A stretch of DNA of 64,000 nt from positions 314,709-378,708 of the forward strand of contig CP060229.1 of the NCBI GenBank assembly GCA_023898585.1, read 5' to 3'. Origin of the DNA: Candidatus Nomurabacteria bacterium (GTDB taxonomy: Bacteria; Patescibacteriota; Minisyncoccia; Phycocordibacterales; UBA918). Shown here one piece after another: positions 13,647-47,462 of the stretch (position 1 is its first letter; every line of letters begins with the position of its first letter). The notes under the pieces are model-generated. The model made no database searches. It was not told where the DNA came from and saw only the letters and a list, made by a program, of their open reading frames with translations. Made by a program: the position numbers and the translations under genes.

Positions 13647-14642
13647 CTAGAAAGGATTCCTGGCCCCGCGAACTTCAAAGTGCAGATGGTTTCCGGTTGA
13701 TTTTCCGGTGTTACCCATACCGCCGATGACTTGACCTTGCGCCACATATTCGCCAACCCCTACATCGTTACGCATAAGGTGAGCGTATAAAGTTTGTGAA
13801 CCGTTGGCGTGCTTAATTACAATATAATTACCATATCCACCATTCCATCCCGAGCTCTTGGAAACAATGATTTCTCCGGCAGAGGCCGCCCTGATTGGTG
13901 CACCGTATCCTCCGGCTAAATCAACCGCGTTGTAACCATGAATACCTTGGGTTTTGACCGATCCGGGAGCCGGATGAATAAAGCCTGCGCCGGAAGCCAC
14001 CGGGCCTGAGGTTTTTGTAGGTTCCGCGTATACTCGCGCCGGCGCAGCGTGCATGGCCCCGCCGGGAATAATCAAAACGTCACCAACCGACAGCCCTTCA
14101 GCCGAAGTCAATTGGTTGTAAGACAAGATTTCATCGACTTCTCCTTCGTACTTTTTAGCGATAGTACTAATCGTGTCACCTTTTTTAACTGTGTGCTGCA
14201 CACCAACAATCGGTAAAATGACCAGGACGTCGCCCGGTTGGATATCTGTCGCCTTATTGATATCGTTGGCCCACATAATAGTATTGGTGGTTACACCGAA
14301 CATCTCAGCCACGCGTGAAAGGGAATCACCTTCGCGCACAGTATAAACACGAATCTCGCCGGTACTGGTTTTTTGTTCCGCAATATCATCTTCTCCAACC
14401 GGTCCGGTTGAAACTAAAGCGTTTTCATCCACCACAATTTCCGCTCCACCTCTTGCTCCCAAGGGATTCGGATTTTGCAGGGCGGTCAAAAGTGGAATAT
14501 CTGTGGCCGTGAACACTCCAACTACTTCTGTCTTCGCCTGCGCTTCTTCCCCGGTAAAAAATTTAGAAAAGAAACCGGCTTGGACGGAAATAGGAACTGC
14601 GACCGCGAGAGTGATAAGCAAAAATTCACCGATCATCGACAA
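13647..14642 (-). CDS. M23-family metallopeptidase with two LysM domains (murein hydrolase-like)
   Basis: N-terminal signal/TM, LysM repeats (GDSLSRVAEMF..., GDTISTIAKKY...), C-terminal HxxxD...HLHFEVR M23 motif. Confidence 0.8.
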   Translation of the reverse strand: MSMIGEFLLITLAVAVPISVQAGFFSKFFTGEEAQAKTEVVGVFTATDIPLLTALQNPNPLGARGGAEIVVDENALVSTGPVGEDDIAEQKTSTGEIRVYTVREGDSLSRVAEMFGVTTNTIMWANDINKATDIQPGDVLVILPIVGVQHTVKKGDTISTIAKKYEGEVDEILSYNQLTSAEGLSVGDVLIIPGGAMHAAPARVYAEPTKTSGPVASGAGFIHPAPGSVKTQGIHGYNAVDLAGGYGAPIRAASAGEIIVSKSSGWNGGYGNYIVIKHANGSQTLYAHLMRNDVGVGEYVAQGQVIGGMGNTGKSTGNHLHFEVRGARNPF

Positions 14643-20352: not shown

Positions 20353-22560
20353 ATGAACGTTCTTAAGAAAAACATTCCGACTCTATCGCTACTCGCTCTA
20401 CTGCTCTTAAGTACGCCTTTTGTGGTTTTTGCTCAAGAAGGAGCTATCGAAAAAACATTGTGGTTCATTGCGAACGGTGTTTTCGGGACACTTTTTGGGC
20501 TGGCTGGAATGTTGTTGGATTGGGGTATAAAAGATTTTGTTATCGGTTTTGGTGATTCTTTTACCAAACCGGGTGGAGTGGGTTTTGTGGTCGATGCCTT
20601 GTGGGTGAATGTGCGCGATCTTTTTAATATCACTTTCATTTTCGGCTTGGTCTACATCGGCTTTAAAATGATTCTCGATAGCGACGACTCCAACACCAAA
20701 CGCTGGTTGATCAACCTTATCATGGCGGCTATTCTGGTTAATTTCAGCCTCTATATCACTAAATTGATCGTAGACCTTGCAAATATTACCGCCTCTCAGA
20801 TTGCAATAAACGGTTTCGAGACCGGATCAAAAGAAATCTCTGAACAATTCATGAATTATTTGGGCATCAACAGTGTTTGGGGCCTTGATAAAATACCTTC
20901 ATTGGAGGGTGGGGCATATGGTTACATTTTTGGAGCTGCCATTCTCTTTATCGTCGGCACATTTGTCTTTGCGGCTGGGGGAATAATGCTCATTTTCCGC
21001 TACGGCATGCTTTGTCTCTATATGGTGCTTTCCCCTTTGATGTTTATCGGCTGGGTCTTCCCCCAGCTACAGAGCGAGACTAGTAAGTACTGGAAAGGTT
21101 TTTTGGGGCGAGCCTTCTTTGCCCCCCTTTATCTTTTGCTCTTATTTTTCTCACTAAAAGTTATTGCTGGTTTCTATGGCGCAGACAATAGCTCTCCCGC
21201 CTTCCATAAATTATTTGTAGGCGGGGGTGACAACATTGAACCATCATTTTCAACAACACTGCCACCGTTTATTCTGTCCTGCTTCTTCATGATCGCTTCG
21301 GTCGTTGTCGCCAACAAACTGGGGGCCGATGGCGCCAGCCAAGCACTCCGGATTGGCAACAACCTGCGTGGCCGAGCACAGAGAGGGTTGCAACGAACAG
21401 CTATTGGAGCCACTCGATTCACGGCTTCACAAACTGCTGGTAGGATAGCGAGGCCACTTTCTAATGTGGCCGGCAATTACGCTAACAAGCAAATTACCAA
21501 ATGGCAGGAGGGAAGAGGCAGTGTCATAATGGGTGCTCTCGCCAACACGGTGGCGGGAGACACGATAATGAGAGGAGCGGCGACTAAAATGAAAGGGGCT
21601 AAATTCGGCCTAGCCAACACCTCTGATGAGGAAAGAGCGAAGAAAGACGCCATCAACAAGAGAAATGAAAACGCAGAGATAACCAGAAGAGGAGTGTCTG
21701 CTCAGGAAGAACTCGACAAAGAAAAAGAGACCACGGGAAGCATCGCAACTACCGGTCAGATTTGGGATCAGAGTCAAGGTAAAATGGTTAACCGAAGCAC
21801 CCTCACTCCAGATGAAATTAAAGTTCTACTTGAACAAAACGCAGCCAAAATGCAGAGTGTGGTCACTGGCTACTCCGACAAACAGTTGGAAGAAATGTTT
21901 AATAACGATAGGGAGAAATTTGACAGTATTGTTGGTCATCTTAAGGCCAGCCAATTCGATAAGTTGGTGAGTAGCGACGGAATTCCACAAACCGAGAAAG
22001 GTAAAATGTTGAGCTTAAGACAAAAGACCATTGAGAAAACGTTTATGCAGAACGGTAAAATCCTTACTGAGGAGTTCCAAAACCTCTCCATCGAACAAAT
22101 TGAGGCAATGGGAGACGACTTCATTCGCCAAAACGCACACCTATTCTCTGAAAGCCAGATGGAATCTATTAAGAAGAGCAGTTCGTTCACCGAAAGCCAG
22201 AAGGGCTCCTATATTGGCACCCGAAAGAAGAATCAGGTTGATATGGCAAACGATCCACACCGATTGGAGCAACTGTTCAAACACAACGCTCGAGGTTCAA
22301 CCGGTAGTTATTCAAAAGAAAAGAAAGCGATTGAAATCGCCAGTCTTCCATTCGAAGTGTTTATTGATAGTAGCGGAACACCAAATGATGTCGCTGTAAG
22401 CAAGATAGATGGTAGCGTCTTGGAACAAATTGCTAAAAAAGACACCATGACCGCAGACCAACGAAGAGAAATTGCAAAAGCTGTACGAGGTATCCCGGTA
22501 CCAAACGATAAGGCTATTAAATACTTGAACACCTCTCAAGGAAGAAGATATTACAGCTAA
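20353..22560 (+). CDS. Polytopic membrane protein, VirB6/TrbL-like candidate (signal peptide, ~6-7 TM helices, ~380-aa hydrophilic C-terminal extension)
   Basis: Topology resembles VirB6/TcpH-type channel subunits; no direct motif evidence. Confidence 0.4.
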   Translation: MNVLKKNIPTLSLLALLLLSTPFVVFAQEGAIEKTLWFIANGVFGTLFGLAGMLLDWGIKDFVIGFGDSFTKPGGVGFVVDALWVNVRDLFNITFIFGLVYIGFKMILDSDDSNTKRWLINLIMAAILVNFSLYITKLIVDLANITASQIAINGFETGSKEISEQFMNYLGINSVWGLDKIPSLEGGAYGYIFGAAILFIVGTFVFAAGGIMLIFRYGMLCLYMVLSPLMFIGWVFPQLQSETSKYWKGFLGRAFFAPLYLLLLFFSLKVIAGFYGADNSSPAFHKLFVGGGDNIEPSFSTTLPPFILSCFFMIASVVVANKLGADGASQALRIGNNLRGRAQRGLQRTAIGATRFTASQTAGRIARPLSNVAGNYANKQITKWQEGRGSVIMGALANTVAGDTIMRGAATKMKGAKFGLANTSDEERAKKDAINKRNENAEITRRGVSAQEELDKEKETTGSIATTGQIWDQSQGKMVNRSTLTPDEIKVLLEQNAAKMQSVVTGYSDKQLEEMFNNDREKFDSIVGHLKASQFDKLVSSDGIPQTEKGKMLSLRQKTIEKTFMQNGKILTEEFQNLSIEQIEAMGDDFIRQNAHLFSESQMESIKKSSSFTESQKGSYIGTRKKNQVDMANDPHRLEQLFKHNARGSTGSYSKEKKAIEIASLPFEVFIDSSGTPNDVAVSKIDGSVLEQIAKKDTMTADQRREIAKAVRGIPVPNDKAIKYLNTSQGRRYYS

Positions 22561-22567
22561 TATAATT

Positions 22568-23143
22568 ATGGAAATCACCAACGAACAACGTGACCAGGCT
22601 TACGAAACAGCAACCCCTGAGCAGAAATATTTGTATGCCGATCCGGAAAGCGGTCAGAAGATGTACGACATTGCGAATAAACACAACATTGTAAATGACG
22701 AGCAATACAATAAATACGCAATGATAGTTGGTGACGTGGTTTTAAATCTACGTAAAAGGTCTGATCTTCCAGCCTTACTGTCCAACTCACTCGGAATTAG
22801 TTCTGAAAAAGCGACTTCTATTGCGACTGACTTGATTGATTTTCTAGATCGTAAACCGATACAAAACACCGAGATCGACCTCTCCGCTGACATCGCAGAA
22901 ACTGAAGCTTCGCTCAAGGCCGTGCCACGCATACGCACCATGATGACCGACATGGACAAGGTTCAAACACCGGGCGAAAAAGTTTACTCTTCGACCCAGG
23001 AAGCAATTTTAAAAGACTCCAAACCAGCTGTTGCCGTTATGGTACCAGTCCCGCTACCGAGACCGACCGCTCCTCCTACCTCTTCTCCACCGCCAATACC
23101 GAAGCCTCAGAACTTCAAAAAAGACACCGGCAGTTGGGGATAG
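22568..23143 (+). CDS. Hypothetical protein with Pro-rich C-terminus
   Basis: ORF only. Confidence 0.35.
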   Translation: MEITNEQRDQAYETATPEQKYLYADPESGQKMYDIANKHNIVNDEQYNKYAMIVGDVVLNLRKRSDLPALLSNSLGISSEKATSIATDLIDFLDRKPIQNTEIDLSADIAETEASLKAVPRIRTMMTDMDKVQTPGEKVYSSTQEAILKDSKPAVAVMVPVPLPRPTAPPTSSPPPIPKPQNFKKDTGSWG

Positions 23144-23192: not shown

Positions 23193-23609
23193 ATGCGTTT
23201 TGAAGTTCCGCAATTCATTGAAATCGAGGATAAAATTTTCGGACCATTTACTTGGCGACAATTCGTCTATCTGGGCGGAGGAATCGGTTTGGCAGTAATC
23301 ATATTTTTTTATCTGCCCCTCATAGTATTTATTTTGTTCGGCATTCCTTTAGCCCTACTAGCCGGAGCGCTCTCTTTCTATCCGGTCAACAACCGCCCTT
23401 TCTCATTTTTTCTTGAAGCCATCTTCAATTATCTAAGCGGGCAGAGACTGTATCTCTGGAGACAGAAATCAAACATCGTACACCGTGGTTCGAGACCGAC
23501 CAAAACATCAGCTTCGTCAAGAGAAAGAAACCGTAGCCTGCGACCAAAAAGTGACATCGCCTCCCTGGCCCGTAAACTGGAATTACAAGCCCTACAAAAA
23601 ATTGAGTAA
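23193..23609 (+). CDS. PrgI/VirB3-like small two-TM membrane protein
   Basis: 138 aa, short cytoplasmic N-terminus then two adjacent TM helices; positioned immediately upstream of VirB4 as in Gram-positive-type T4SS operons. Confidence 0.45.
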   Translation: MRFEVPQFIEIEDKIFGPFTWRQFVYLGGGIGLAVIIFFYLPLIVFILFGIPLALLAGALSFYPVNNRPFSFFLEAIFNYLSGQRLYLWRQKSNIVHRGSRPTKTSASSRERNRSLRPKSDIASLARKLELQALQKIE

Positions 23610-23611
23610 TT

Positions 23612-24259
23612 ATGCCAAAATCACAAGCTTCCACACAAGATTTTGTCTCGGTAAGAGACATTAAGGAAAATGTCGTCATCAACAAAAACGGTCAGATGAC
23701 AATGGTGCTTTTGGCTTCTTCCATCAACTTCGCACTCAAGTCGCTCGACGAGCAAAAAGCTATTTTGCAACAATTTCAGCAGTTCTTGAACACGCTTGAT
23801 TTCACTCTGCAAATATTTATCCAGTCAAGAAGGCTGAACATTGAACCATATCTGGCCACGCTCTCCAACTTGGAAGAAAAACAAGACAACGACCTGATGC
23901 GCGTTCAACTGCGTGAATATGTCGAATTTATCCAAACCTTTACACAGGATGTAGACGTGATGAGTAAGAATTTTTTTGTGGTAATTCCTTACTCACCGTC
24001 AAAAATAAACATTGCTAAAGGCATCACCAATCTGTTCACCCCCGGATCGAGCAGAATGATACTGCCGGACGAGACACGTTTTGAAGAACATCGTATTCAG
24101 TTGGAGCAACGCGCGGGGATGGTATCGGAAGGTTTGGCGCGCGTTGGAGTGAGAACCATCACCCTGCAGAAAGATGATTTGGTTGAATTTTTCTACCACC
24201 TCTACAACCCGGGAGACTTGACCGGCTCTTCTCCACAAATTGATAATGAATATAATTAA
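23612..24259 (+). CDS. VirB4/TraC-family ATPase, N-terminal segment (separated from the ATPase body by one in-frame TAA)
   Basis: Same reading frame as 24263..26065; VRDIKENVVINKNGQMTMVLL... resembles the VirB4 N-terminal region. Confidence 0.5.
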   Translation: MPKSQASTQDFVSVRDIKENVVINKNGQMTMVLLASSINFALKSLDEQKAILQQFQQFLNTLDFTLQIFIQSRRLNIEPYLATLSNLEEKQDNDLMRVQLREYVEFIQTFTQDVDVMSKNFFVVIPYSPSKINIAKGITNLFTPGSSRMILPDETRFEEHRIQLEQRAGMVSEGLARVGVRTITLQKDDLVEFFYHLYNPGDLTGSSPQIDNEYN

Positions 24260-24262
24260 AAT

Positions 24263-26065
24263 ATGGGACTAAAAGAACTTCTACAACCACCGCAAAGTGG
24301 TGATCAGGGAAACAAAGACAGCATCAAAGATCAGATGATGACTCTGTCGGACGTAATTGCTCCGTCTGCCGTCAGTATAAATCCGCGCGGAATCAATGTG
24401 AGCGGTGTCACCGCGCGTGTGTACTACGCGGTCTCTTATCCTCGTTATCTAAACGACGGTTGGATTGAGCCGGTCTTGAACATGGCCAAGGAGTTGGATG
24501 TTTCTATTTTTATTCACCCGGTTGATACGGTTGATACTTTGAAGAAATTTCAAAAGAAAGTGGCCGAGGTGCAGAGCCAGATAAACATCAAGGCCGACAA
24601 GGGGGAAGTGCGCGACCCACAACTCGAAGCTGCCTACCGCAACTTGGAGGAACTTAGAGACAAACTGCAACAAGCGGAAGAGAAGCTTTTTGATGTTGGT
24701 TTTTATCTTGCAATCTACGGCGAGAATGACACCGAGATCAACCAAGTGGAAAATGAAGTGCGGGGTATTTTGGACGCCCGTTTGGTGATGGTAAAACCGG
24801 CTTTGTTCCAGCAAGAACAAGGAATAAAAAGTGTCTTGCCCTTGGCAGACGATCAACTCTTGGTGCACAGCAAATTCAACTCGGAACCACTTTCAAGCTT
24901 CTTTCCCTTTACCTCATTCGACCTTACCTCAGACACCGGTATTCTCTACGGCATCAATCGCCACAATTCTTCCTTGGTACTTTTCGACCGATACACGCTC
25001 ACCAACTACAACTCCGTCACCTTCGCCACCTCCGGCGCGGGTAAATCGTACGCTTTGAAATTGGAAATTTTGCGCTCGTTGATGTTTGGCACTGAGGTTA
25101 TCGTTCTTGATCCGGAGCATGAATACGAATACCTGGCCGATGCGACGGGGGGAAGATTCTTTAATATTTCCCTGTCCTCCAACCACCACGTTAATCCTTT
25201 CGACTTACCGCCACCGAGCAAAGATGAGGATCCGAGGGACGTTCTTCGTACCCATATTATCGAGCTGGTCGGACTTTTCCGCTTGATGCTCGGTGGCCTG
25301 ACCGCAGAAGAAGAAACTTTGATCGACCTCGCCATCCAAGAAACTTATGCCTTGAAAGACATCACCGGCGATACAGACTTTGGTGATATGGAACCACCGC
25401 TTCTTTCTGATTTTGAAATGGTGCTCGCGGGAATGGACGGTAGCAATTCACTAATCACCCGACTGCAAAAATACACCTCGGGAACCTGGTCCGGTTTCAT
25501 GAACCAACCAACCAACGTGGACATCAACCAAAAGTTTGTGGTGTTTTCACTTCGTGACATGGAGGACGAACTGAAGACCATCGCCATGTACATTATTACC
25601 AACTTCATTTGGGGCTCGATCAGGCGTCGCACCGCCAAGCGACTAATGGTAATTGATGAAGCCTGGTGGATGATGAAATCGGAGGACACCGCTTCTTTCT
25701 TGTTTAGTTTGGCCAAAAGAGGACGAAAGTACTACCTCGGCATCGCCACCATCACTCAAGATGTGGATGATTTTTTACGCTCTCCTTACGGCGTGCCGAT
25801 GATAACCAACTCTTCCATTCAACTTTTGATGAAACAATCACCAACCGCTATCGATAACATTCAAAAAACTTTTAACTTGACCGACGAGGAAAAATATCTG
25901 TTACTTGAGTCCAATGTGGGTGAGGGTATATTCTTTGCCGGACTGAAACACGTGGCTATCAAAATTATCGCCTCGTACACCGAAGACCAAATCATCACTT
26001 CCGACCCGTCTCAACTTCTCCAAATTAAAAAAGCACGCGAAGAACTGCAAGCATCACGTATGTAG
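24263..26065 (+). CDS. VirB4/TraC/CagE-family type IV secretion ATPase (main body)
   Basis: CagE/TrbE/VirB-type N-domain, Walker A FATSGAGKSYALK, Walker B MVIDEAWWMM, C-terminal TQDVDDF region. Confidence 0.8.
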   Translation: MGLKELLQPPQSGDQGNKDSIKDQMMTLSDVIAPSAVSINPRGINVSGVTARVYYAVSYPRYLNDGWIEPVLNMAKELDVSIFIHPVDTVDTLKKFQKKVAEVQSQINIKADKGEVRDPQLEAAYRNLEELRDKLQQAEEKLFDVGFYLAIYGENDTEINQVENEVRGILDARLVMVKPALFQQEQGIKSVLPLADDQLLVHSKFNSEPLSSFFPFTSFDLTSDTGILYGINRHNSSLVLFDRYTLTNYNSVTFATSGAGKSYALKLEILRSLMFGTEVIVLDPEHEYEYLADATGGRFFNISLSSNHHVNPFDLPPPSKDEDPRDVLRTHIIELVGLFRLMLGGLTAEEETLIDLAIQETYALKDITGDTDFGDMEPPLLSDFEMVLAGMDGSNSLITRLQKYTSGTWSGFMNQPTNVDINQKFVVFSLRDMEDELKTIAMYIITNFIWGSIRRRTAKRLMVIDEAWWMMKSEDTASFLFSLAKRGRKYYLGIATITQDVDDFLRSPYGVPMITNSSIQLLMKQSPTAIDNIQKTFNLTDEEKYLLLESNVGEGIFFAGLKHVAIKIIASYTEDQIITSDPSQLLQIKKAREELQASRM

Positions 26066-26079
26066 TATACTTCTGGTAT

Positions 26080-27039
26080 ATGGCGGAGCCTCAAATAGAC
26101 GATAAAGATTTATATAGCCGATCAAAGGGTAGAGGAAAGGCCATTAGCGACCTTTATTACGGCGCGGATCTAAAATCCGTCCCGACGAAAAGACCAGGGG
26201 TTGGAGACCGAATAACCGACCCCGAGCGAAGAGTGTTTAACCCCAACCAGACTTGGAACGTGCGCACTTCAACCATGCCCGGCTCATCCCGCAATCAAGA
26301 ATTCAACCCCGGCAAACCGGACATTTCGACGGAATTCACAGAGGCCCAGAAGGAAAGACTGACTCAGTCTGATTTACTAAACAAAATAGACACCCGGAAA
26401 CAAGAGCCGTACAAACCGATCTCACAAATCGATCGCTCCGCCAGAGTGGAATATTCTTCCGAGCCGGCAGTGGCATCGACGGCGCTGGCGAACAAAATTT
26501 TAGAGAAGGAGAGAGAGAAGAAAAAGAAAAAAACCACTCCTTTAACCCGCGCTAGGGTGACAGGAGTGAATACCGGTATTTGGATTGGTGGAGTGGGTAG
26601 TTGGTTGGTTTTTCAGCTTCCTTTTGCGATCGTGAGCGCGATGATGTTGGGAGTTGCTGGGGGGATAGATGCACTGAGAGCATCAGTCGGAACTATGAAG
26701 AACGAAATGGGAATATGGTACACCCTCGGAAAAGCTTCTGTTGCTACTCTTGATGGGATTGATGGTCTTATATCGAAAATAACTGGTTTCAAAATTTTAG
26801 ATCTTCCGATCAACCTATTCGCACTCACCTATATGGTAGTTTTAGCCTACGGAACCTTCTTATTGATACTTATTTACATCCTATACAAATTAAACCGTTT
26901 TAGGCCTCTGTCTGGAAAAGCAAGTGGTACGAAATACGGTTTTTTCCTTCTCGCTTTTGTGGGCTATGCTATCCCTATTTTAAACATCTTTCCGTGTTTT
27001 ATACCATGGACAATAGCTGTTTGGTTTAAACCAAAATAA
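26080..27039 (+). CDS. Hypothetical membrane protein (hydrophilic N-terminal half, ~4 C-terminal TM helices)
   Basis: ORF and hydropathy only. Confidence 0.4.
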   Translation: MAEPQIDDKDLYSRSKGRGKAISDLYYGADLKSVPTKRPGVGDRITDPERRVFNPNQTWNVRTSTMPGSSRNQEFNPGKPDISTEFTEAQKERLTQSDLLNKIDTRKQEPYKPISQIDRSARVEYSSEPAVASTALANKILEKEREKKKKKTTPLTRARVTGVNTGIWIGGVGSWLVFQLPFAIVSAMMLGVAGGIDALRASVGTMKNEMGIWYTLGKASVATLDGIDGLISKITGFKILDLPINLFALTYMVVLAYGTFLLILIYILYKLNRFRPLSGKASGTKYGFFLLAFVGYAIPILNIFPCFIPWTIAVWFKPK

Positions 27040-27119: not shown

Positions 27120-27428
27120 CTAAATATCAAACAGCAAAACCGTCTTTTCTTTTAAGATTAAGCCTGGTTTACATTCCTCTCCAACCTCGCGATTCAGTTT
27201 ACAGATCTCATCTACCGAAAGTCCGTAAGTTTTTGCAAACAAGGACAATTCGGTATCTTCATGAGGGAATATGCAAGACTGCCCCTTTGTGTCGAAACAA
27301 TCTTTTTTGTTGAGTTTTTTTACGACGAGGTATTTGACTGCATCAGCAGCCGAAACCTGAGTCGTGAAACCCAGAGCCAGAATCAGTGCAGCTACAACGA
27401 TAGCTGCAAGTTTATTCAACTTGGCCAT
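27120..27428 (-). CDS. Small secreted protein with LysM-like segment and 4 Cys
   Basis: GAGGAGG RBS 5 nt upstream of the ATG at 27428; signal peptide MAKLNKLAAIVVAALILALGFTTQVSA. Confidence 0.4.
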   Translation of the reverse strand: MAKLNKLAAIVVAALILALGFTTQVSAADAVKYLVVKKLNKKDCFDTKGQSCIFPHEDTELSLFAKTYGLSVDEICKLNREVGEECKPGLILKEKTVLLFDI

Positions 27429-27684: not shown

Positions 27685-28656
27685 ATGAGGGCGTTTATAT
27701 TATCTTGCTTAGTAACCTTTCTTTTAATATCCAATCCGACTTTGGCTCAGTTTGACAGCAACTCAATCGGTGCCACCGAACTCGCGATCGAACTGCAACC
27801 GGAATTCCCTCGTCCGGGCGAAGAAGTGATCGCCACTTTGAACGATTATCGGGGTGGGACCTACGGTTCTTCGATTACTTGGGTTTTGGACGGCAAAGAA
27901 ATTCCCGACGCGAAAAACCAAAGACAAACCATCATCACCGCCGGTCCGAGCGGTAAAGTGCAAACCATCGAGATCGTGCTGTCAAAACCGGACGGGGGAC
28001 GAGAAGTGATCAGCAATACTCTCAAACCCTACTACCTCGACGTCATAATAGAACCCCAAACCAGAACGCCGGACTTTTATCTCGGCCGGTCTCTGCCTAG
28101 TATTGGTAGTATTGTAAACGCGACCGCTCTTGTGAGTGGCGTTAATGGATTTCTCGACACCGATCTTATCTACACCTGGAGACTGGGACGAACCGTGTTT
28201 GAAGGCGGGCCTCTTAGAGGTCGTAACAAAATTTCCTTCGAAACCCCGATGGGAAAGGAGATGATTCTTTCGGTCGAAGTAACGAAGCCGGACGGAGAAA
28301 TAATCGCCAGCCGAGCGATGTTTGTGGCTTCGGTCGAACCGGAAATCTATTTTTATGAGGTGAGTACTCTTTTTGGTATTAAGCCGATTCCGGTTGATGA
28401 AAATATTTCACTTATCGGAAATAGTCTCATCATTCGAGCCGAGCCGTATAACCTTGATTCTCGGGTCTTTAATAATCCTGACGTAAGTGAGTGGCAAATA
28501 GACCGTATCACATCAAACAATACCGGAAGCAATCCCTATGAAGTGACACTGAAAAGAAATGACAGCGGATCCGGGTTGTCCGAACTCCAATTTCACGTCA
28601 GAGACTTGAAGCAAATATTACAAGGCGCTAAAGGGGGAACAAGAATAAACTATTAG
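27685..28656 (+). CDS. Hypothetical secreted protein (signal peptide)
   Basis: ORF with cleavable N-terminal signal. Confidence 0.45.
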   Translation: MRAFILSCLVTFLLISNPTLAQFDSNSIGATELAIELQPEFPRPGEEVIATLNDYRGGTYGSSITWVLDGKEIPDAKNQRQTIITAGPSGKVQTIEIVLSKPDGGREVISNTLKPYYLDVIIEPQTRTPDFYLGRSLPSIGSIVNATALVSGVNGFLDTDLIYTWRLGRTVFEGGPLRGRNKISFETPMGKEMILSVEVTKPDGEIIASRAMFVASVEPEIYFYEVSTLFGIKPIPVDENISLIGNSLIIRAEPYNLDSRVFNNPDVSEWQIDRITSNNTGSNPYEVTLKRNDSGSGLSELQFHVRDLKQILQGAKGGTRINY

Positions 28657-28660
28657 TCCT

Positions 28661-29863
28661 ATGAAACGTCCAGTCTTTATCATTATCGGCGCGATTCTAG
28701 TCTTAGTGTTGTTGGTGATTTGGGTATACATGCTTTTCTTCAATAAGCCGAGTGGTGGGGAAGATGAATTCGCCAATCTGAACTTTAACAACACCAACGA
28801 CCCAACCGCTATAGTCGATCAGCCTGAAAACAACGAACCGACAGTTGACGTAATGGGGAAGGAAAGATTGCGACAATTAACAACCAAACCAACCGCCGGC
28901 TACAGGGAAGTACAACGCACACCAAGCTCAACCCCCGAACTGCTCTACATAGAATCCGGTACCGGACACATCTTCTCCATTGATTTAGCGTCTGGGGAAG
29001 AGAAACGTATTTCAGCGACCACAATTCCCTTGAGCACTAAGGGAGAGATAACTCCTGATGGAAAATTCGTTATGATTCAATCAGGCTTTGGCGCCGGTAG
29101 CGAATTCGTCGTCGGGGAAATAAACCCTTCCGATAACACACTTTCCAATAAAGGTTTGAATGAACAGATTGTGAGCTTTTCCGCCACCGACAATAATACT
29201 TTCTTATACTCCATCCAAACCATCGACTCGGTGATTGCGAAAGAATATGATCCACTTAAAGAAACCCAAAAAACACTGTTCGTTGCTCCTTTCAGAGAAG
29301 CGCTGATTGACTGGGGAGACAGCGCTTCTGCTGTGCATTATTTTTACCCTAAAGCGACTAGTAAATTGGAAGGGTTTTTGTATAAAGTCGAAAATGGAAA
29401 AATCTCCAGACTGCCGATTGACGGCTACGGATTGTCAGCTGAGGGCGGTGGCGCTAATGTGATATACAGCAAAGATATGGTTGGTAAATACCAAACCTAT
29501 GTCTACAACCAAGAAAACAACGTGTCTGCTCAATCGCCGGTTAGAGTGATTCCGGAAAAATGCGCGACCGCCAACACCAACACCAGCAAAATATTCTGTG
29601 CCTCCTCAGACAACATAAAAGAGTCGGACTTACCTGATCTTTGGTACAAAGGAAAAGTAACTTACGCCGATGATCTATGGCGAGCGGACACCGATTCCGG
29701 TGGAATGGCATATTTGTTTAACGTGAAGTCTGGGAGTGGGCGTGAGTTGGATATGGTAAATCTAGTGACCAACAAAGACGACAGTAATTTATATTTCACC
29801 AATAAAACCGACGGTTTTTTGTGGATGTTTGAGTTGATTCCGGCTGATGAAAACAGGCAATAA
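28661..29863 (+). CDS. Hypothetical membrane-anchored extracytoplasmic protein
   Basis: N-terminal TM helix; beta-rich composition. Confidence 0.45.
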   Translation: MKRPVFIIIGAILVLVLLVIWVYMLFFNKPSGGEDEFANLNFNNTNDPTAIVDQPENNEPTVDVMGKERLRQLTTKPTAGYREVQRTPSSTPELLYIESGTGHIFSIDLASGEEKRISATTIPLSTKGEITPDGKFVMIQSGFGAGSEFVVGEINPSDNTLSNKGLNEQIVSFSATDNNTFLYSIQTIDSVIAKEYDPLKETQKTLFVAPFREALIDWGDSASAVHYFYPKATSKLEGFLYKVENGKISRLPIDGYGLSAEGGGANVIYSKDMVGKYQTYVYNQENNVSAQSPVRVIPEKCATANTNTSKIFCASSDNIKESDLPDLWYKGKVTYADDLWRADTDSGGMAYLFNVKSGSGRELDMVNLVTNKDDSNLYFTNKTDGFLWMFELIPADENRQ

Positions 29864-29891: not shown

Positions 29892-30704
29892 ATGAAATAT
29901 TTCGCCATCTTTGCACTACTCCTACTACCGATTCTTTCCTTCGGGGCTCAGTACCAGCCTTTGGTTGGCATACCAAACGTAGATCCAAACGCTGATTTTA
30001 GTGGCTACATAGAATCCCTTTATATAATGTCGATCAGTATTGCCGGACTGTTGGCGGTTTTCAAGATAATTATCGCGGGTATAAAGTGGATGATGACGGA
30101 CATCGTCACCTCCAAAAGTGAGGCAAAAAAAGACATTCAGGGGGCTTTGATCGGTTTGTTGGTTGTGCTCGGCGCTGTGTTGATTTTGACGGTTATCAAC
30201 CCCGATCTGGTTAAGGTTGATTTAAGACTTGACCCGGCTCCAACTCCGACCCTGCAAAAATCACGTGATACTGAATACTATGCGTTGTTGGAAGAAGACA
30301 TGAAGTATGTTATACCAAGTAATGTGCCTGAAGCTAAAGCAAAAGAACTTTGTCTTTCTAGAAGCGAGACTCTTTGTGAAGAGAATAGGAAGATAGGTTG
30401 TTATGAAGGTGAGTACTATCAGACGAACGATGAGAAAGTTTGTGTCATCAGGGAGAATAATCTCGTCAAAGGTGGTGAGGAGTTTGATTGTGAATGGATA
30501 AGTAGTGAGCCACAACCTTTACAGTGTAGTTTTTCAACTATTTTTGATTGGGACAACTCTTGTAGTGTAATAAGCTGGGATCTTTTCAATGAAGGGTGGG
30601 ATTGTAGCGCCGCTCAAGCAAAATGTAGTGGAGCTGGTTTAGATTATGACACTGATTATGTTTATTCTGGTTCAGTACGCCAAGTAGAATGTGAGTGGCC
30701 TTGA
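29892..30704 (+). CDS. VirB2/TrbC-like pilin-type protein fused to a Cys-rich (12 Cys) C-terminal domain
   Basis: Signal peptide followed by two hydrophobic helices separated by a short charged loop, the VirB2/TrbC pilin architecture; then ~150 aa with 12 Cys. Confidence 0.45.
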   Translation: MKYFAIFALLLLPILSFGAQYQPLVGIPNVDPNADFSGYIESLYIMSISIAGLLAVFKIIIAGIKWMMTDIVTSKSEAKKDIQGALIGLLVVLGAVLILTVINPDLVKVDLRLDPAPTPTLQKSRDTEYYALLEEDMKYVIPSNVPEAKAKELCLSRSETLCEENRKIGCYEGEYYQTNDEKVCVIRENNLVKGGEEFDCEWISSEPQPLQCSFSTIFDWDNSCSVISWDLFNEGWDCSAAQAKCSGAGLDYDTDYVYSGSVRQVECEWP

Positions 30705-30789: not shown

Positions 30790-31518
30790 TTACCGATGCT
30801 TCCTTACAAAATACTCCTGAGCGATGGAGGTAAGATTGCTGACCAAGAAATAAAGCGCGATGGCGGCCGAGATGGAGTAGGCGACTATAGTAATAAGAAC
30901 CGGCATCACGTAGCGCATTTGTGTTTGCATGTTGCGCATAAAGTCATCCTTCATATTTGGCTCGGCTCCGGCTTCTTTTGGAGGCAGTTTGGGCATGGTT
31001 AAATTCACATGAATATACTGCGTGATGCCGGCTCCGAGCGCCAACAAAACACTTTTTTCCGTAATGTCTATCAGACCGAGAAAATTCATCGTGACAATGC
31101 TTGGTTCGGCAATAAAAGAATATAGTAGACTAAGGTTTACCTCCGGCAAGGCCACCCCACCACCACTATAAACCGAGAAGTAAAGCGCGATAATGAACGG
31201 GATTTGTAGAAAAATAAGCAAAATACTGGCAAAGGGATTCATGCCCGATTCACGATAAAGAGCCATCATGGCTTCCGCTTGCATTTGTTTGTTGTCTTTG
31301 TGTTTTTCTTTTATAGCTTTGAGTTGGGGCTCAATCTCACGCATTATTTTTTGCGTTTTGGCGGCTTTTATGGAGATAGGCAAAAGAATCATCTTAACCA
31401 CTAAAACAGTGGCGATGATAGCCAAGCCGATGTCACCACCGGGAATAACATCAATAAAAAATACCAGTGCGTTGTAGACTGGGTCGAAGAAGAACGTGTG
31501 CCAAATATTACTCCACAT
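30790..31518 (-). CDS. yidC: Membrane protein insertase YidC/Oxa1 family (short form)
   Basis: 5-TM core with conserved hydrophilic groove residues; position downstream of rnpA. Confidence 0.85.
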   Translation of the reverse strand: MWSNIWHTFFFDPVYNALVFFIDVIPGGDIGLAIIATVLVVKMILLPISIKAAKTQKIMREIEPQLKAIKEKHKDNKQMQAEAMMALYRESGMNPFASILLIFLQIPFIIALYFSVYSGGGVALPEVNLSLLYSFIAEPSIVTMNFLGLIDITEKSVLLALGAGITQYIHVNLTMPKLPPKEAGAEPNMKDDFMRNMQTQMRYVMPVLITIVAYSISAAIALYFLVSNLTSIAQEYFVRKHR

Positions 31519-41035: not shown

Positions 41036-44000
41036 ATGTATAAACTAAGTATTCTCTTATTGTTAACATGTAATTTGTTATCAGTCGCTCCGATTATTAC
41101 TAACGCTCAATCAGAATCCCTACCCTTACCCTGGGAATCAGAAAAAATATTCGAGAAGTTTCCAGATGCTCCGGAGTTTCTTAAGGACGTACACACAGAA
41201 GAGGATTTTCGTGCTCTTACCCCCGAACAACAGGAGCAAGTGCAAAAGCTTTACAACCCAGACACCCTTGTCGAGGCTGTGATTATGGCTACTGTAGGAT
41301 TACACAATATTTCGGTTGAAAATAAAAACGGAAACTCCTTTGATATTCGTTTTGACGTAGCAAATAAAGTGGGGGCGCAGACAAACATCAAGTATATGGT
41401 AATTCTTGAAGAAGTTACAGAATCGGGTTTTATTCAAAGAGAGTCAGTACCTTTCTATGAGGTGATAAGTGTGGCAGAAGAAGAAACAATAACCAATGTT
41501 ATTTCCTATACGGCTTCAGAATACTTAGCGGGGGAATATAAGGTCAGGGTCATGCTTCAGAATGATAGCGGTCTTATCTTGGGACTTGGCTCTGCTCCAG
41601 AAACAATTCACTTAGACGGTACGGGAGAATACATCCAACTTGATACAAATAACTGTTACCTCACCATACCCGGAGATTTTACAGGTAGCAACGAGACCTA
41701 TTTCTTGATGGAGGGGGTTGATATAAAATCTTTCAGTGAATCATTAAAGGTCACCTGTACAGTAACTAGCACTTATTTGGAGGAGGTAACTGTATATCCC
41801 AAAATGGCAGTATACGAGCGTAATATTATGGGCGATCAAGTAATTGCACCAAATATTTTCAAAGAACAAACTTTCGTTCTTGAGCCGGGTGAAAATACTA
41901 TCACCACTCCCGTTGCCCTTGGTTACACCCCTCAAGCGTATGACACAACATTAACCCTTGTTAATGAAGTTGGTACCGCTGTCTCTCAGTCATTACCAAT
42001 CCACTATGTGATACGAGGAGAGAGCGCCACTATACAAAACATTGTTTTAGACAAAGACACTTATAAGAAGGGTGATACGGCAAAAGTCACGGTGACTTGG
42101 AGTGGCAGAGCAGACGCCTTCCCTGGAGCGAGATACGGTAATGAAGCTTCTGCCGGCAGTCTGGGTTATAGATTGGCTCTAACCAATGCGGGTGGGGAGA
42201 CTTGTGCTGATGAACATACTGCCGAACTGAGTTCCGACAAGGTTCAGTTTATGGCTGAAATACCAGTGACTTCCAGTTGTATGGATCCGGTTGTGATCAT
42301 GTCTCTGAGTGATGGAATGAAAGAACTTGACCGAAAACAATATGAGATCGAATCAAAAGGAGAACCTAAAGTATTCTGGACCAAATTTAGCAACATAGAT
42401 TACACGAGTGACTCAAATCCATTTATTAATATCCTTGTACAACTTATCCTTACCGCTAGTGTCGTTTTGCTTCTCGGAGCGGGAGTGTTATATGTCGTTC
42501 GAAAAATAAATGATCAAAAAAATTCCGAGTCTGATGACGAGGAAGAAAACGATGATGACACTACTACAACTAAAAACAATAAAAAATCATCCACCACAAT
42601 CTCCAGTTGGGCAATCATTACTACATTAGTCGGATTTGGAGCTTTGTTTGCTCCAGCCACATCAGTGGAAGCTTTGACGTTCAGCTCTGGTGGGTTTGGT
42701 TCGGTTACTTTCACTGTTAACGGTGTTAAGTCAGAGTATAGTCCTGGTGAAACTATAACTGTAGAAGGGACAGGAAAGATGAATCATTGTGGAAACTGGG
42801 GAGGAGTCTTTAAATTTGACATGGATGCAATGAACAACAACGAGGAACCTTATCAAGAATTGTTTTCTAATGTTTTTTGGATATATGAAATTGATAATGG
42901 TAGTGGCCAAGTTCAATTCACAGCTCCTACTACGCCAGGTGACTACGAGATAAAAATTAAAGCTGGATACAGTGAGATGGGTATTGCGCCCTCATTTAAC
43001 ATTAAGACTATGTCGTTTGAGGACCCGGGTTGGCAGTATATTAAAATTCCTATTCCTTACAAAGTCGTTACCGCCTCACCAAATGACGGAGCGTGTGGGC
43101 TTGCTAATATAAAAAATTATAATACTTGGCCTTTTTCAGTTGCATTAATTGAAGGTGAAGCTTGTTCTTTTGGTAATATGAATCCAGTACCGGCAGTTGA
43201 AGTGGGGGACGAGTTCGTTTGGGACTGCGAAGGAATAAGTGGTGGAGCTTCTGCGAGCTGTGACGCTGGGGTAATATCAGGTGGTATTTGCGGACCAGCT
43301 GATACCCAATCTTATACCGCAAGCAACCCACCAGACTCTTCTTCTTTGTGTGCAAGAGGAGCTAGCAGGGATTTTACAATATCCGGGAGTAAGTTCACTT
43401 GGTATTGTGACGCTATAAACGGGGGAATACCTGACAGATTTTGTGATGCCGACATAGTAGCAGCCGCCGCAACTGCACCTTCAGGCAACATTACCTTCTC
43501 ACCAAACCCTTGTATAATTGCAGTTGGTCAAAGTAACTGTTCTCTCAATGTTGATTGGACCACCAGTAACTTTGTCGGCACTCCTTCTATGATACAAGGA
43601 ACTGGTGCTCCTTTCAGCTCAAGTCACAGTGGTCCAGCATCTCGCACAGTTACACCAGACGACCGGGCGTTTACTCTTAAAGATGGCACGAATGACATTG
43701 TTACAAAAAGTGCAAACGTAGAATGTGCCACAGACAGCACTTGGGCAAAAAACATATCGACCGGAGTTAGCAGTTGTGTGAATGACCCTGAAATCATTAT
43801 AGAAGCCAACCCGGGTACTATCCGTATTGGGGAAACGGCTGATATATCTATTGACATAAAAGCTTCCGTGCCTGTGACTTGTGAATTGATCAATGCAAAT
43901 GACACTCCGGATATTATCAATTATGCGACCGGAGGAGACACCACAGTATTGGGCACGCTTAAAGAAGTGAAAATAACCACCAAAAATCTCAGTTCCGCCC

Positions 44001-44098
44001 AAATAATCCGCACCACCTGCTCAATGCCTACTTTAGATGTCCCGCCAACTGTTACAGATACCAGAATCGAAGTGGTTCCTGTTCCGCGAGAAGTTTAG
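41036..44098 (+). CDS. Large surface/secreted protein (1020 aa): signal peptide, central TM helix (~aa 470), C-terminal half with repeated Cys modules
   Basis: Repeated xFxWxCxxIxGGxxxxCDA modules (EFVWDCEGISGGASASCDA / KFTWYCDAINGGIPDRFCDA). Confidence 0.5.
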   Translation: MYKLSILLLLTCNLLSVAPIITNAQSESLPLPWESEKIFEKFPDAPEFLKDVHTEEDFRALTPEQQEQVQKLYNPDTLVEAVIMATVGLHNISVENKNGNSFDIRFDVANKVGAQTNIKYMVILEEVTESGFIQRESVPFYEVISVAEEETITNVISYTASEYLAGEYKVRVMLQNDSGLILGLGSAPETIHLDGTGEYIQLDTNNCYLTIPGDFTGSNETYFLMEGVDIKSFSESLKVTCTVTSTYLEEVTVYPKMAVYERNIMGDQVIAPNIFKEQTFVLEPGENTITTPVALGYTPQAYDTTLTLVNEVGTAVSQSLPIHYVIRGESATIQNIVLDKDTYKKGDTAKVTVTWSGRADAFPGARYGNEASAGSLGYRLALTNAGGETCADEHTAELSSDKVQFMAEIPVTSSCMDPVVIMSLSDGMKELDRKQYEIESKGEPKVFWTKFSNIDYTSDSNPFINILVQLILTASVVLLLGAGVLYVVRKINDQKNSESDDEEENDDDTTTTKNNKKSSTTISSWAIITTLVGFGALFAPATSVEALTFSSGGFGSVTFTVNGVKSEYSPGETITVEGTGKMNHCGNWGGVFKFDMDAMNNNEEPYQELFSNVFWIYEIDNGSGQVQFTAPTTPGDYEIKIKAGYSEMGIAPSFNIKTMSFEDPGWQYIKIPIPYKVVTASPNDGACGLANIKNYNTWPFSVALIEGEACSFGNMNPVPAVEVGDEFVWDCEGISGGASASCDAGVISGGICGPADTQSYTASNPPDSSSLCARGASRDFTISGSKFTWYCDAINGGIPDRFCDADIVAAAATAPSGNITFSPNPCIIAVGQSNCSLNVDWTTSNFVGTPSMIQGTGAPFSSSHSGPASRTVTPDDRAFTLKDGTNDIVTKSANVECATDSTWAKNISTGVSSCVNDPEIIIEANPGTIRIGETADISIDIKASVPVTCELINANDTPDIINYATGGDTTVLGTLKEVKITTKNLSSAQIIRTTCSMPTLDVPPTVTDTRIEVVPVPREV

Positions 44099-45383: not shown

Positions 45384-47462
45384 ATGAACATGCCTGAAGG
45401 ATTAAAAACAGAGTTGTTAAAACAAGTTTGTAAAAAACCTGCCGTTGATAAATTCTTACAATCTCTAGGTAAAACCACGTTACTACTCAAAGACCGTTAT
45501 AAGGAGTGTGTCGGTTCTGACCCGCTCCTTGCTACAGGTTGTGAATATGTCTACCAACAGTGGTTACAGAACCAATCGGTTTCGGTAGTCAATTCGCACA
45601 GAAGCGGATTGGAGCCCAACTTTAAATTTTATGAAGAACATCTTCTCTACAAGATTGCTCTTTCAGTATTTTTGGCAACAGATGGACAAATCGTTGTCGA
45701 GGAAGGTGACGTTGATTTGGCAATTTCATATTGGAGATTAAGTGAAGAGAGTTCACCCAACCGTTCTTTTGTTGCTAAACAACTACCAGCCATAGCAGAA
45801 AAAACCTATACTCATGAACACGTGTGTTATGACTCTCGAAACATTCCAGTTGAACTGGACGAGTGGCAAAAGGATCACAACCAGAAACTGTTTGAAGAGG
45901 CTTGTGAACATTGTGTAAAAAATGATTCGTTACCCGCCAGTAGCTTAAGAAAATATTGGGTAAGAGTGTATAAAAATTGTTGGGCAAAAGAGCCAAATAT
46001 CAAACAATATCTTTTGCAAAGATGGTGTGAAGTCGTCTCATCGCAACCGCTACCCGATATGCAAAAACTACTGGTAAATTCACGAAATTTTAAGGAGAGA
46101 GGGCGCATAGCCTCCGGGCTCTTACTGCCTGATCTTGAGAGAATTGTGCATGATCGCTTAGTTAGGATGGAAGAGGAAAGCCGGTCGCGACTGGAAAGTG
46201 CGGCCAATGTCAAGGACTTAAAAGAGCTTCTGGAAAATGGTTTTTCCGATTGGGAAAGAAACGAAAGTTTTGACAACGCTTTAAAAAAGGTCTTGGAGAA
46301 TACCAAAGTGAGCGAAACCGAAGAAGTGGTTTCTCTTTTGGGCAATCTCTGTCAAGCTGATCGTTTGTCTGATAAAACCATTACCACGTTTAATGATTGG
46401 TTCGTTAAAACAGTCAATCAGGAATCGGTCGATATTCTAGTCAACGCTTTGTTTTCGAGAGAGTGTCGCGAGGCTAGAGACGTACTAGCTCCTGCGATTG
46501 TTGGTCTGTTTCAATGGAAAGTCCGAACCTTGCCAAGACGTTTGCTTGAGGATTTGGGAAGTTCGATGGGTTATGCCGATGAAGCTGCTAAGCTTGCTTC
46601 TTCCGAATTGCGACGGAGGAGTCTGTCTTACGTACAAACCATGAAGCTGGAGACAGCCGTTGCTCGTTGTAGGCTTTGTCGATCGGCGGAGGAGAATGAT
46701 CCATTTTGTCTTGCCTTGAAAGCACGGATTGACAAACTCCTGTCACAAGCCGAAAGTCCTGAGTTGTTGGAGCTTGTTAGAAAAAATAATCTGGAGCGTG
46801 CCTATCAGTTAAGACAGTCTTGCTCAATGGGAATGGATTATCCATGGTCGCAAATATTTGAAAGGATAGATGAACTACGACTGGCTCGGCTAAACAAGGA
46901 TGATTTGACTGAAGTGTTGAATAACTGTAGTACTCTCCACAGTGTTGAGGCGAGAGCGCAGTGTATGAGTATCTTTCTTAAAGGTGTCAAAAAGGAGGAA
47001 GACATCATCAAGCTTTGTGGGTATCAGACTGAAATACTGGTTTCTCGGTATAGAGATGTGGAGGAATTCACGAGACACATAATGGATGTGGTTGAAGCGA
47101 TAACTTCAAAACGTACTTTAACTGAAGAGGAAGTGTGTCAGATGGCGTCCGTACCTTCTGTGCGGTTGAGTCCAGGAGTGTTTGAGGTTTTTCACTCAGC
47201 AATATCAGCCTCGTTACCTCTGTTTCCGTTTCCCGCTTTGTGTCGGATAGAAAAACAACTTTCTTCTGAGTGGTCGTGGACGGTTGTTGCTTCAGAGTTG
47301 AGTAAACGAAAAAGAGACTTGCTCCCGGCTGAGATCGCACGAGTGTATGAAAGAGAAGAGGACGATGTCAAAATCGCCAAAGAACTCCTTGTTTTGTACG
47401 GGGACATGACCTCTGTTTCAGAGCAAGATTTCTTCCTCGAAACGTTAGGTTCGTTAAGGTAG
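45384..47462 (+). CDS. Hypothetical cytoplasmic alpha-helical protein (692 aa, 25 Cys, no TM)
   Basis: ORF only; codon and amino-acid usage visibly differ from neighbouring genes (Leu/Arg/Cys/Glu-rich). Confidence 0.45.
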   Translation: MNMPEGLKTELLKQVCKKPAVDKFLQSLGKTTLLLKDRYKECVGSDPLLATGCEYVYQQWLQNQSVSVVNSHRSGLEPNFKFYEEHLLYKIALSVFLATDGQIVVEEGDVDLAISYWRLSEESSPNRSFVAKQLPAIAEKTYTHEHVCYDSRNIPVELDEWQKDHNQKLFEEACEHCVKNDSLPASSLRKYWVRVYKNCWAKEPNIKQYLLQRWCEVVSSQPLPDMQKLLVNSRNFKERGRIASGLLLPDLERIVHDRLVRMEEESRSRLESAANVKDLKELLENGFSDWERNESFDNALKKVLENTKVSETEEVVSLLGNLCQADRLSDKTITTFNDWFVKTVNQESVDILVNALFSRECREARDVLAPAIVGLFQWKVRTLPRRLLEDLGSSMGYADEAAKLASSELRRRSLSYVQTMKLETAVARCRLCRSAEENDPFCLALKARIDKLLSQAESPELLELVRKNNLERAYQLRQSCSMGMDYPWSQIFERIDELRLARLNKDDLTEVLNNCSTLHSVEARAQCMSIFLKGVKKEEDIIKLCGYQTEILVSRYRDVEEFTRHIMDVVEAITSKRTLTEEEVCQMASVPSVRLSPGVFEVFHSAISASLPLFPFPALCRIEKQLSSEWSWTVVASELSKRKRDLLPAEIARVYEREEDDVKIAKELLVLYGDMTSVSEQDFFLETLGSLR

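Follow-up and report, generated by a model that had tools for sequence, protein, structure and literature searches.

VirB2-like pilins encoded in type IV secretion system (T4SS) clusters near dnaA have already been described in the Patescibacteria (PMC12102498), ultrasmall bacteria of the Candidate Phyla Radiation (CPR) whose recognition and exploitation of host cells are largely unknown. In the only lineage studied by genetics (PMC10633639), Candidatus Southlakia epibionticum, epibiotic growth requires both the T4SS and its pilin genes (PMC10633639, PMC12857230). The described pilins belong to the family PF18895, which, according to a preprint, dominates the freshwater-specific structure clusters (bioRxiv 10.1101/2025.04.23.650224); they are treated as small proteins, with their variation attributed to arrays of 2-11 divergent paralogues. 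Here we analysed a 64,000-nucleotide stretch of a Candidatus Nomurabacteria chromosome (contig CP060229.1, positions 314,709 to 378,708 of the forward strand; henceforth the window), which at positions 29892-30704 encodes a protein resembling the PF18895 pilins, including those of S. epibionticum ML1, in coupling a signal peptide to a two-helix hairpin. The likeness extends to the locus: both are found in a monoderm-type T4SS cluster with VirB4, TrsD, PrgI and VirB6, often near dnaA (PMC12102498; PMC10633639), and without a relaxase or coupling protein. Unlike the described pilins, the family of the window protein is usually represented by one gene with a very conserved core, and its variation is concentrated in a disulfide-rich domain of 100-330 amino acids (aa) fused at the C-terminus.

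On the whole, we lean towards the view that this protein is a VirB2-like subunit of the T4SS, either as a major pilin or as part of a conduit, which bears on every copy a swappable surface head likely to act in host recognition.

The pilin-family core

The open reading frame (ORF) at 29892-30704 is real. Its product shows three hydrophobic segments by hydropathy, namely a signal-peptide-like segment at aa 1-19 (MKYFAIFALLLLPILSFGA) and two segments of transmembrane (TM) length at about aa 42-68 and 82-104. Concordant with this two-helix architecture, an AlphaFold2 (AF2) model of the full-length protein, built with 120 homologues (mean predicted local distance difference test score, pLDDT, of 77), packs helices at aa 36-68 and 74-102 into a hairpin. 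Both lines of evidence agree with a first-pass annotation of the window, which had read a signal peptide and a two-helix hairpin from this ORF; the single-pass topology that it had named as a counter-indication is not what we recover. We infer that cleavage of the signal peptide likely follows G18 or A19. The mature N-terminal segment (aa 20-41) is predicted to lie outside the membrane while, by the topology deduced from a signal peptide and two helices, the Lys-rich loop between the helices is predicted to face the cytoplasm or a lumen. Beyond the second helix (TM2), the model becomes disordered around aa 121-126 (pLDDT <50) and is followed by a folded C-terminal part, such that the post-TM2 region of about 165 aa resolves into a low-confidence Pro/Thr linker of about 30 aa and a folded domain of about 134 aa. 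The C-terminal region is acidic.

To place the core, we collected its homologues, of which 127 were found among 5.8 billion proteins; over the first ~110 residues they share 60-75% identity with the window protein. When 120 homologues were scanned singly (E<=1e-3), 106 matched PF18895 (T4SS_pilin; best E 1.9e-8), 83 matched NF045849 and 10 matched TrbC (PF04956). NF045849 is an NCBIfam equivalog profile of 80 positions for the Mbov_0395 pilin-like conjugal transfer protein, and we take its matches to indicate relatedness rather than membership in the equivalog. Because 106 of the 120 close homologues match PF18895, we assign the core to this family despite the sub-threshold score of the window protein itself (see below), and regard it as being, by homology, a bona fide member of the Patescibacterial VirB2-like pilins. 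A profile built from the homologues matches the window ORF at 2.8e-53, a value that is partly circular as the window protein is one of its rows. The family matches and the T4SS operon context together favour the earlier reading of the N-terminal ~110 aa as a VirB2-like pilin module.

Conservation of the core is strong: both helices contain many small residues that do not vary, and the loop keeps a K-x-E-A-K-K-D-I-Q-G sequence. Among relatives the hairpin is 58-76% identical, as against 35-59% for the other envelope proteins of the operon, which suggests tight packing against other proteins or lipids rather than the role of a simple anchor. We also observed that a Y-x-P-L-V-G-I-P-G-V stretch just after the predicted cleavage site (window 29949-29990, aa 20-33) is near-invariant across the family. 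This invariance exceeds what an exposed N-terminal tail would need, and the segment may be a processing, recognition or subunit-contact motif.

The gene for this pilin-family hairpin lies in a T4SS operon. It is the last gene of a conserved monoderm-type operon that codes for VirB6, PrgI/VirB3, TrsD, VirB4 and four proteins of unknown function, and starts 29 nt after the stop codon of the gene for a conserved N-terminally anchored protein of 400 aa (p400). It is also the only pilin-like ORF in the window, and a single copy is present in 76 of 84 related loci, with two tandem copies in the remaining 8. A single pilin slot in most loci and a lone pilin-like gene in the window suggest that this protein would be the main subunit, with the C-terminal domain on every copy.

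The cysteine-rich C-terminal domain and its variation

The window protein has 10 Cys residues, all of them within aa 154-267 (positions 154, 162, 170, 184, 200, 212, 224, 238, 245 and 267). The first-pass annotation had spoken of a roughly 150-aa domain with 12 Cys; the size is in keeping with the post-TM2 region and its folded part given above, whereas the count has to be corrected to 10. This amounts to a Cys density of 3.7% overall and 8.5% in aa 154-270, compared with a mean of 0.76% in window ORFs, and places the pilin first among the 39 window ORFs of at least 200 aa. At the background rate, a stretch of 117 aa would have at least 10 Cys with a probability of ~3e-8, and the enrichment is thus not due to chance. 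The next most Cys-rich ORFs in the window are 41036-44098 (+; 1020 aa, 20 Cys) and 45384-47462 (+; 692 aa, 19 Cys), neither of which belongs to a Pfam family; the latter is ~400 bp from a gene for a PilB/T2SSE-type ATPase (47875-49629, -). They may be further exported proteins.

The extension is characteristic of the family: of the 120 homologues nearly all bear one (median 144 aa), and the median post-TM2 length in relatives is 144-162 aa. The number of post-TM2 Cys residues is even in 118 of the 120 (p ~1e-32), and likewise in 89 of 90 ORFs read from retrieved loci, a set that comes mostly from a genome scan and overlaps with the 120 homologues. An even-number bias of Cys in exported proteins is reportedly an established signature of extracytoplasmic disulfide formation. 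Moreover, the cytoplasmic VirB4 (600 aa), TrsD-like (215 aa) and 191-aa proteins of the T4SS, as well as the membrane protein PrgI (138 aa), are free of Cys, while the exported neighbours of the pilin in the operon have 2 or 4 each. This distribution suggests that the source organism uses Cys mainly for extracytoplasmic disulfides. Given the even Cys counts, the C-terminal domain is very probably extracytoplasmic and disulfide-bonded. A cleaved signal peptide followed by two helices would leave it outside the membrane, and the parity of its Cys residues is consistent with this placement. A regular-expression scan for thioredoxin-type CxxC oxidoreductases found none in the window, which says little for a 64-kb sample.

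A confident AF2 model of the C-terminal domain alone (pLDDT 84, predicted template modelling score 0.72) shows an alpha/beta fold with a low-confidence loop at aa 215-227. The domain can be divided into two modules. Module A (aa ~137-190) has four Cys (C154, C162, C170 and C184) that are invariant in the closest subtype, together with a C-Y-x-G-E-Y-Y motif, and is the sole module in some homologues. Module B (aa ~191-270) is marked by a D-C-S-A-A-x-x-x-C helix and a terminal C-E-W-P; going by presence and absence in the alignment (A1), C200, C238, C245 and C267 would constitute its conserved set, with C212 and C224 as an insertion-specific pair. Foldseek searches of the model against PDB and BFVD returned nothing below E=0.39 (TM ~0.2), the C-domain profile had no match among PDB sequences and Pfam scans of the C-domains gave no credible match.

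We also searched with the Cys-rich domain alone, as the first-pass annotation had proposed. Word-indexed searches with the domain or its profile recovered just the window's own allele and one other protein, and an exhaustive hidden Markov model (HMM) search of 1.84 billion cluster representatives recovered 25 proteins only, almost all of them fused to a pilin core. In all but two of these the domain is placed after residue ~130-160 of a protein of ~185-350 aa, and those new matches whose sequences were inspected start with the pilin core. The two exceptions are an 88-aa fragment and an odd 806-aa protein (P0134). The latter has the window-type Cys-rich domain at aa 690-804 and no pilin core, its first ~680 aa resembling a HEAT-repeat or heme-binding dehydrogenase-like protein; either assembly or gene calling has produced a chimera, or the domain has truly been transferred to another protein.

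We then compared the C-domain with the rest of the locus. Relative to the window, the syntenic loci L001 and L002 are 96% and 95% identical at the amino acid level in DnaA, 90% and 87% in VirB4, 78% and 76% in YidC, and 76% and 65% in the pilin core; for the pilin C-domain, L001 shows 34% identity along part of the domain and L002 no match. Across loci from 79 species-representative genomes, found by a search with the conserved pilin core, the window's C-domain was detected in none. By BLAST, the extensions from 118 homologues group into 28 components, of which three are large (38, 37 and 14 members) and 25 small, and a profile-profile comparison of the window's type with the second large type showed no similarity (hhalign probability 0.3%). 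Furthermore, several sets of homologues with 99-100% identical cores carry unrelated C-domains: P0070/P0100, P0102/P0088/P0090/P0094, P0092/P0096 and the tandem pair P0101/P0106 of locus L004. In this last pair, encoded between p400 and yidC (L004:4565-6444), the mature cores are identical while the signal peptides differ and the C-domains are unrelated, which suggests that the core underwent gene conversion, or that the gene was recently duplicated and one cassette then replaced.

At the DNA level, we compared two near-identical strains (L085:1-3700 with L086:4491-7866). From the upstream gene as far as the pilin linker their DNA is 93.6% identical; no similarity is seen for 657 bp, from within the linker to 36 nt before the stop codon, and identity then resumes at 95.9% through yidC. 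We read this pattern as one allelic cassette having replaced another, by homologous recombination in the conserved sequences on both sides. The final 12 codons (...DP.C..FGTCN), conserved in both strains, seem to act as the 3' recombination flank. These comparisons show the C-domain to be hypervariable and, in relatives, swapped as a cassette, making it the fastest-evolving part of an otherwise conserved operon. That the Cys-rich extension is general, hypervariable and cassette-like throughout a whole Paceibacteria/Parcubacteria pilin family had escaped the first-pass annotation.

The T4SS locus and its neighbours

The features of the pilin gene and of the surrounding operon are collected in the table.

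Table. Coordinates of the pilin gene, its predicted parts and the neighbouring genes (window positions)
Feature	Position	Strand	Basis or remarks
Whole gene, T4SS_pilin-family protein with Cys-rich C-terminal domain	29892-30704	+	ATG start, 270 aa plus stop
Sec-type signal peptide, aa 1-19	29892-29948	+	Hydropathy; AxA-type ends in the aligned homologues
Conserved mature N-terminal segment, aa 20-41, Y-x-P-L-V-G-I-P motif	29949-30014	+	Near-invariant L24, V25, P28, G29, F36
Hydrophobic helix 1 of hairpin, aa 42-68	30015-30095	+	Hydropathy, AF2; invariant Y44, I48, A51, A55, V56, G63, M67
Short Lys-rich loop, aa 69-81, TDIVTSKSEAKKD	30096-30134	+	Hydropathy, alignment
Hydrophobic helix 2 of hairpin, aa 82-104, ending in invariant N103-P104	30135-30203	+	Hydropathy, alignment, AF2
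Variable Pro/Thr-rich linker, aa 105-136	30204-30299	+	Alignment, AF2; breakpoint site in related alleles
C-domain module A, aa 137-190, beta/alpha unit	30300-30461	+	Alignment, C-domain AF2
C-domain module B, aa 191-270, six Cys	30462-30701	+	Alignment, C-domain AF2
VirB6/TrbL-like polytopic membrane protein	20353-22560	+	TrbL, weak; TrbL_3 in orthologous loci; 8 TM-like segments
191-aa protein	22568-23143	+	ORF upstream in operon
PrgI (VirB3-like)	23193-23609	+	PF12666, E=4e-10
TrsD/TraC-like protein resembling VirB4 N-terminus	23612-24259	+	Profile matches, orthologous loci
VirB4-like ATPase, CD1110 family, monoderm type	24263-26065	+	NF045971, 359.7 bits, cut-off 325
Conserved 319-aa membrane protein, function unknown	26080-27039	+	ORF; syntenic in relatives
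Conserved secreted 323-aa protein, function unknown	27685-28656	+	Present in 76/79 related loci
Conserved N-terminally anchored 400-aa protein (p400)	28661-29863	+	Present in 77/79 related loci
yidC, convergent downstream neighbour, 3' boundary of locus	30790-31518	-	Synteny; followed by rnpA and dnaA

Downstream of the pilin gene, on the opposite strand, come yidC and rnpA, followed by dnaA and dnaN, with rpmH also found in the yidC-rnpA-rpmH-dnaA block. The gene order is identical in L001, L002, L004, L005, L085 and L086, and recurs in assemblies of Kaiserbacteria, Nomurabacteria and Parcubacteria/Paceibacteria. Among the 79 species loci, p400 is upstream of the pilin on the same strand in 67 of the 77 in which it was detected, and yidC is downstream on the opposite strand in 68 of 71. 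This chromosomal, origin-proximal and relaxase-less system is the Patescibacterial T4SS described earlier (PMC12102498), and the adjacency of yidC to the pilin is probably merely the gene order of the origin region. A promoter and terminator scan around the pilin gene gave promoter-like counts equal to the shuffle level.

Two further genes deserve mention in connection with this system. A gene of ~102 aa lies on the reverse strand inside the operon (27120-27428, -) and codes for a protein with a signal peptide, 4 Cys and no Pfam match; a reverse-strand gene of 91-100 aa is found at the same position in L001, L002, L003 and L086, with none called in L005. It is probably real and part of the T4SS. 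At 13647-14642 (-), ~5.7 kb upstream of the VirB6-like gene, is a gene for a LysM-LysM-Peptidase_M23 protein; wall hydrolases of the LysM/M23 type have been reported, above all for Paceibacteria, to serve the T4SS as partners resembling VirB1 (PMC12102498).

The VirB4 protein of the locus also matches NF045975, the VirB4 family of the integrative and conjugative elements (ICEs) of Mycoplasma. As the pilin core and VirB4 both match Mycoplasma ICE families (NF045849 and NF045975, respectively), a VirB2-like two-helix protein may already have been present in a monoderm ancestor of the MPF-FATA type. Co-option of a VirB2-like pilin from diderm systems has been left open as an alternative (PMC12102498).

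Proposed mode of action and relationship to known systems

These features can be combined into a scheme for a head-bearing T4SS subunit. The Sec signal peptide would be removed and the two helices inserted as a hairpin whose termini would both lie outside and whose Lys-rich loop would lie inside, which is the topology of the VirB2/TraA pilins. The VirB4/VirB3/VirB6 machine would then extract or assemble the hairpin, which would polymerise to give either a filament resembling a pilus or a conduit across the wall. The flexible Pro/Thr linker of ~30 aa would put a ~134-aa domain with five disulfides outside each subunit, so that the heads on their linkers might form an outer layer. Between strains, the C-domain cassette would be exchanged by homologous recombination via the conserved core and the 3' flank. 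Most likely, the heads would bind ligands and let the cell recognise or adhere to the surface of its host cell in a strain-specific way; they might, in addition, help it to escape being recognised by phages or by the host.

Several observations weigh against this scheme. From the published geometry of the F-pilus we estimate that each subunit has only ~7 nm2 of surface where it meets the outside of the filament wall. By the same kind of estimate, a ~14-kDa head on every subunit (cross-section ~8 nm2) would crowd a VirB2-type filament, and the heads would hence have to sit at a larger radius on their linkers. The window protein itself scores below the gathering threshold of PF18895 (E=0.0031 and 18 bits over aa 49-102, against 26.6 bits), and likewise stays below that of TrbC/VirB2 (PF04956; 12.1 bits, E=0.24, against 27.9 bits) and below the curated cut-off of NF045849 (20.3 bits, E=3.3e-4 over aa 38-102, against 40 bits). 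The similarity to TrbC/VirB2 profiles, whose lack the first-pass annotation had named as a counter-indication, is sub-threshold in the window protein and is seen in the homologues, of which 106 match PF18895 and 10 match TrbC. A search of PDB sequences with the family profile found no solved pilin, and Foldseek of the full-length model against PDB found generic helical hairpins only (best E=0.47). Neither Foldseek nor the profile and Pfam searches revealed a recognisable lectin or adhesin fold in the C-domain. The sharp cassette boundary is seen in relatives rather than in the window's own allele, where the picture is blurrier: its nearest relatives are ~75% identical in DNA and the similarity covers only 29956-30221 of the gene. 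Finally, for the Patescibacterial VirB2-like protein a pilus has been put forward only as a possibility (PMC12857230).

Some of these points would equally suit a non-polymerising, membrane-anchored surface protein, in which the hairpin is a channel or stator component of the T4SS or a docking anchor, and the Cys-rich domain is shown at the cell surface beside the secretion pore rather than on a filament, as may also be so for the pilin-like proteins of monoderm ICEs without pili. No pili are known from T4SSs of the monoderm, MPF-FATA-like type, to which this one belongs (PMC12102498, PMC12857230); the 83 homologues that match the Mycoplasma ICE pilin-like family, the estimated steric awkwardness of a 134-aa domain on each subunit of a VirB2-type filament and the failure to match a solved pilin by sequence or fold all point the same way. 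However, the conservation of the hairpin (58-76%, with invariant small residues in the helices) goes beyond what a simple anchor needs, the family matches pilin profiles, and a long flexible linker suggests projection from a crowded surface. All in all, such an anchor seems to us rather unlikely. We hold as improbable a minor pilin or tip adhesin, whereby a separate small major pilin forms the shaft and the decorated paralogue caps it. The arrays of 2-11 divergent pilin genes in other Patescibacteria (PMC12102498) and the tandem copies in 8 of the 84 related loci would accommodate this arrangement, as would the fact that only 64 kb of the source genome is visible. But the window holds no other pilin-like ORF, 76 of the 84 loci fill the pilin slot of the operon with a single copy, and both proteins of a two-copy locus have long C-domains (P0101, 279 aa; P0106, 318 aa). 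In addition, the extension is found in nearly all of the homologues, and a genome scan with subfamily-specific search patterns, which included contigs of ~1 Mb, found one locus per genome with one exception. The tip adhesin proposed in the first-pass annotation was rejected on account of the single pilin slot and the extension on nearly all homologues; the protein looks like the main subunit instead.

The same annotation had alternatively suggested an effector domain. In its fullest form this would be a polymorphic secreted effector or toxin, with the pilin-like N-terminus as an export module and the variable C-terminal domain released onto the host. A sharp boundary between constant N-terminal and variable C-terminal parts, with unrelated cassettes on identical cores, recalls such proteins, and the flexible linker could be a cleavage site. 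Nevertheless, no immunity-like ORF follows the gene, the convergent yidC being within ~90-130 bp in nearly all loci, and neither Pfam nor Foldseek matched the domain to a toxin or enzyme family or fold. Small Cys-rich domains with a conserved disulfide scaffold and variable loops would also be more typical of binding modules. An effector is accordingly very improbable in our assessment. A toxin/immunity system was likewise rejected: the variable cassette is present, but there is no ORF before the convergent yidC and no toxin match.

Returning to the head-bearing T4SS subunit, the literature on Patescibacterial T4SS pilins that we searched does not mention a fused Cys-rich C-terminal domain or cassette exchange. 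Many members of the gene family are found in databases under the name 'hypothetical protein'; the pilin plus C-domain architecture and its evolutionary behaviour appear to be undescribed. We raise only tentatively the larger proposal of a previously undescribed T4SS filament or conduit, with a VirB2-type core and a disulfide-rich, cassette-swapped head on each subunit serving as a host-range determinant of an episymbiont. The C-domain, swapped as it is between near-identical strains, is a concrete candidate for what determines specificity in the Paceibacteria, a far larger group that is mostly uncultured. Should the protein polymerise, it would add to what is known to be carried by a VirB2-type pilin. 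Hypervariable appended domains may also explain the dominance of PF18895 in freshwater-specific structure clusters.

Among better-studied systems, the VirB2/TrbC/TraA pilins (PF04956) share with the window protein the hairpin with both termini outside, the basic loop, the association with VirB3, VirB4 and VirB6, and weak profile cross-matches. The window protein differs from them in its short Sec signal peptide (theirs being a long leader), its monoderm host and its large C-terminal globular domain; the absence of such a domain from the classical small VirB2 pilins had been correctly noted in the first-pass annotation. The Mycoplasma ICE proteins Mbov_0395 and MMCAP2_0565 (NF045849) share the two-helix core over aa 38-102, but they have no counterpart of the C-domain, and the window locus is chromosomal rather than on an ICE. 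By analogy only, and with no homology, the architecture may be likened to the hypervariable outer domains of flagellins, the antigenic variation of Neisseria PilE and the R64 PilV shufflon adhesin. In each of these, a conserved polymerisation or anchoring module is combined with an exposed part, which recombination replaces and which sets surface specificity. In contrast to the PilE/PilV-type systems, we found no silent cassettes, invertible repeats or recombinase adjoining the pilin gene in the window; the exchange appears to be allelic, taking place between strains or between tandem paralogues.

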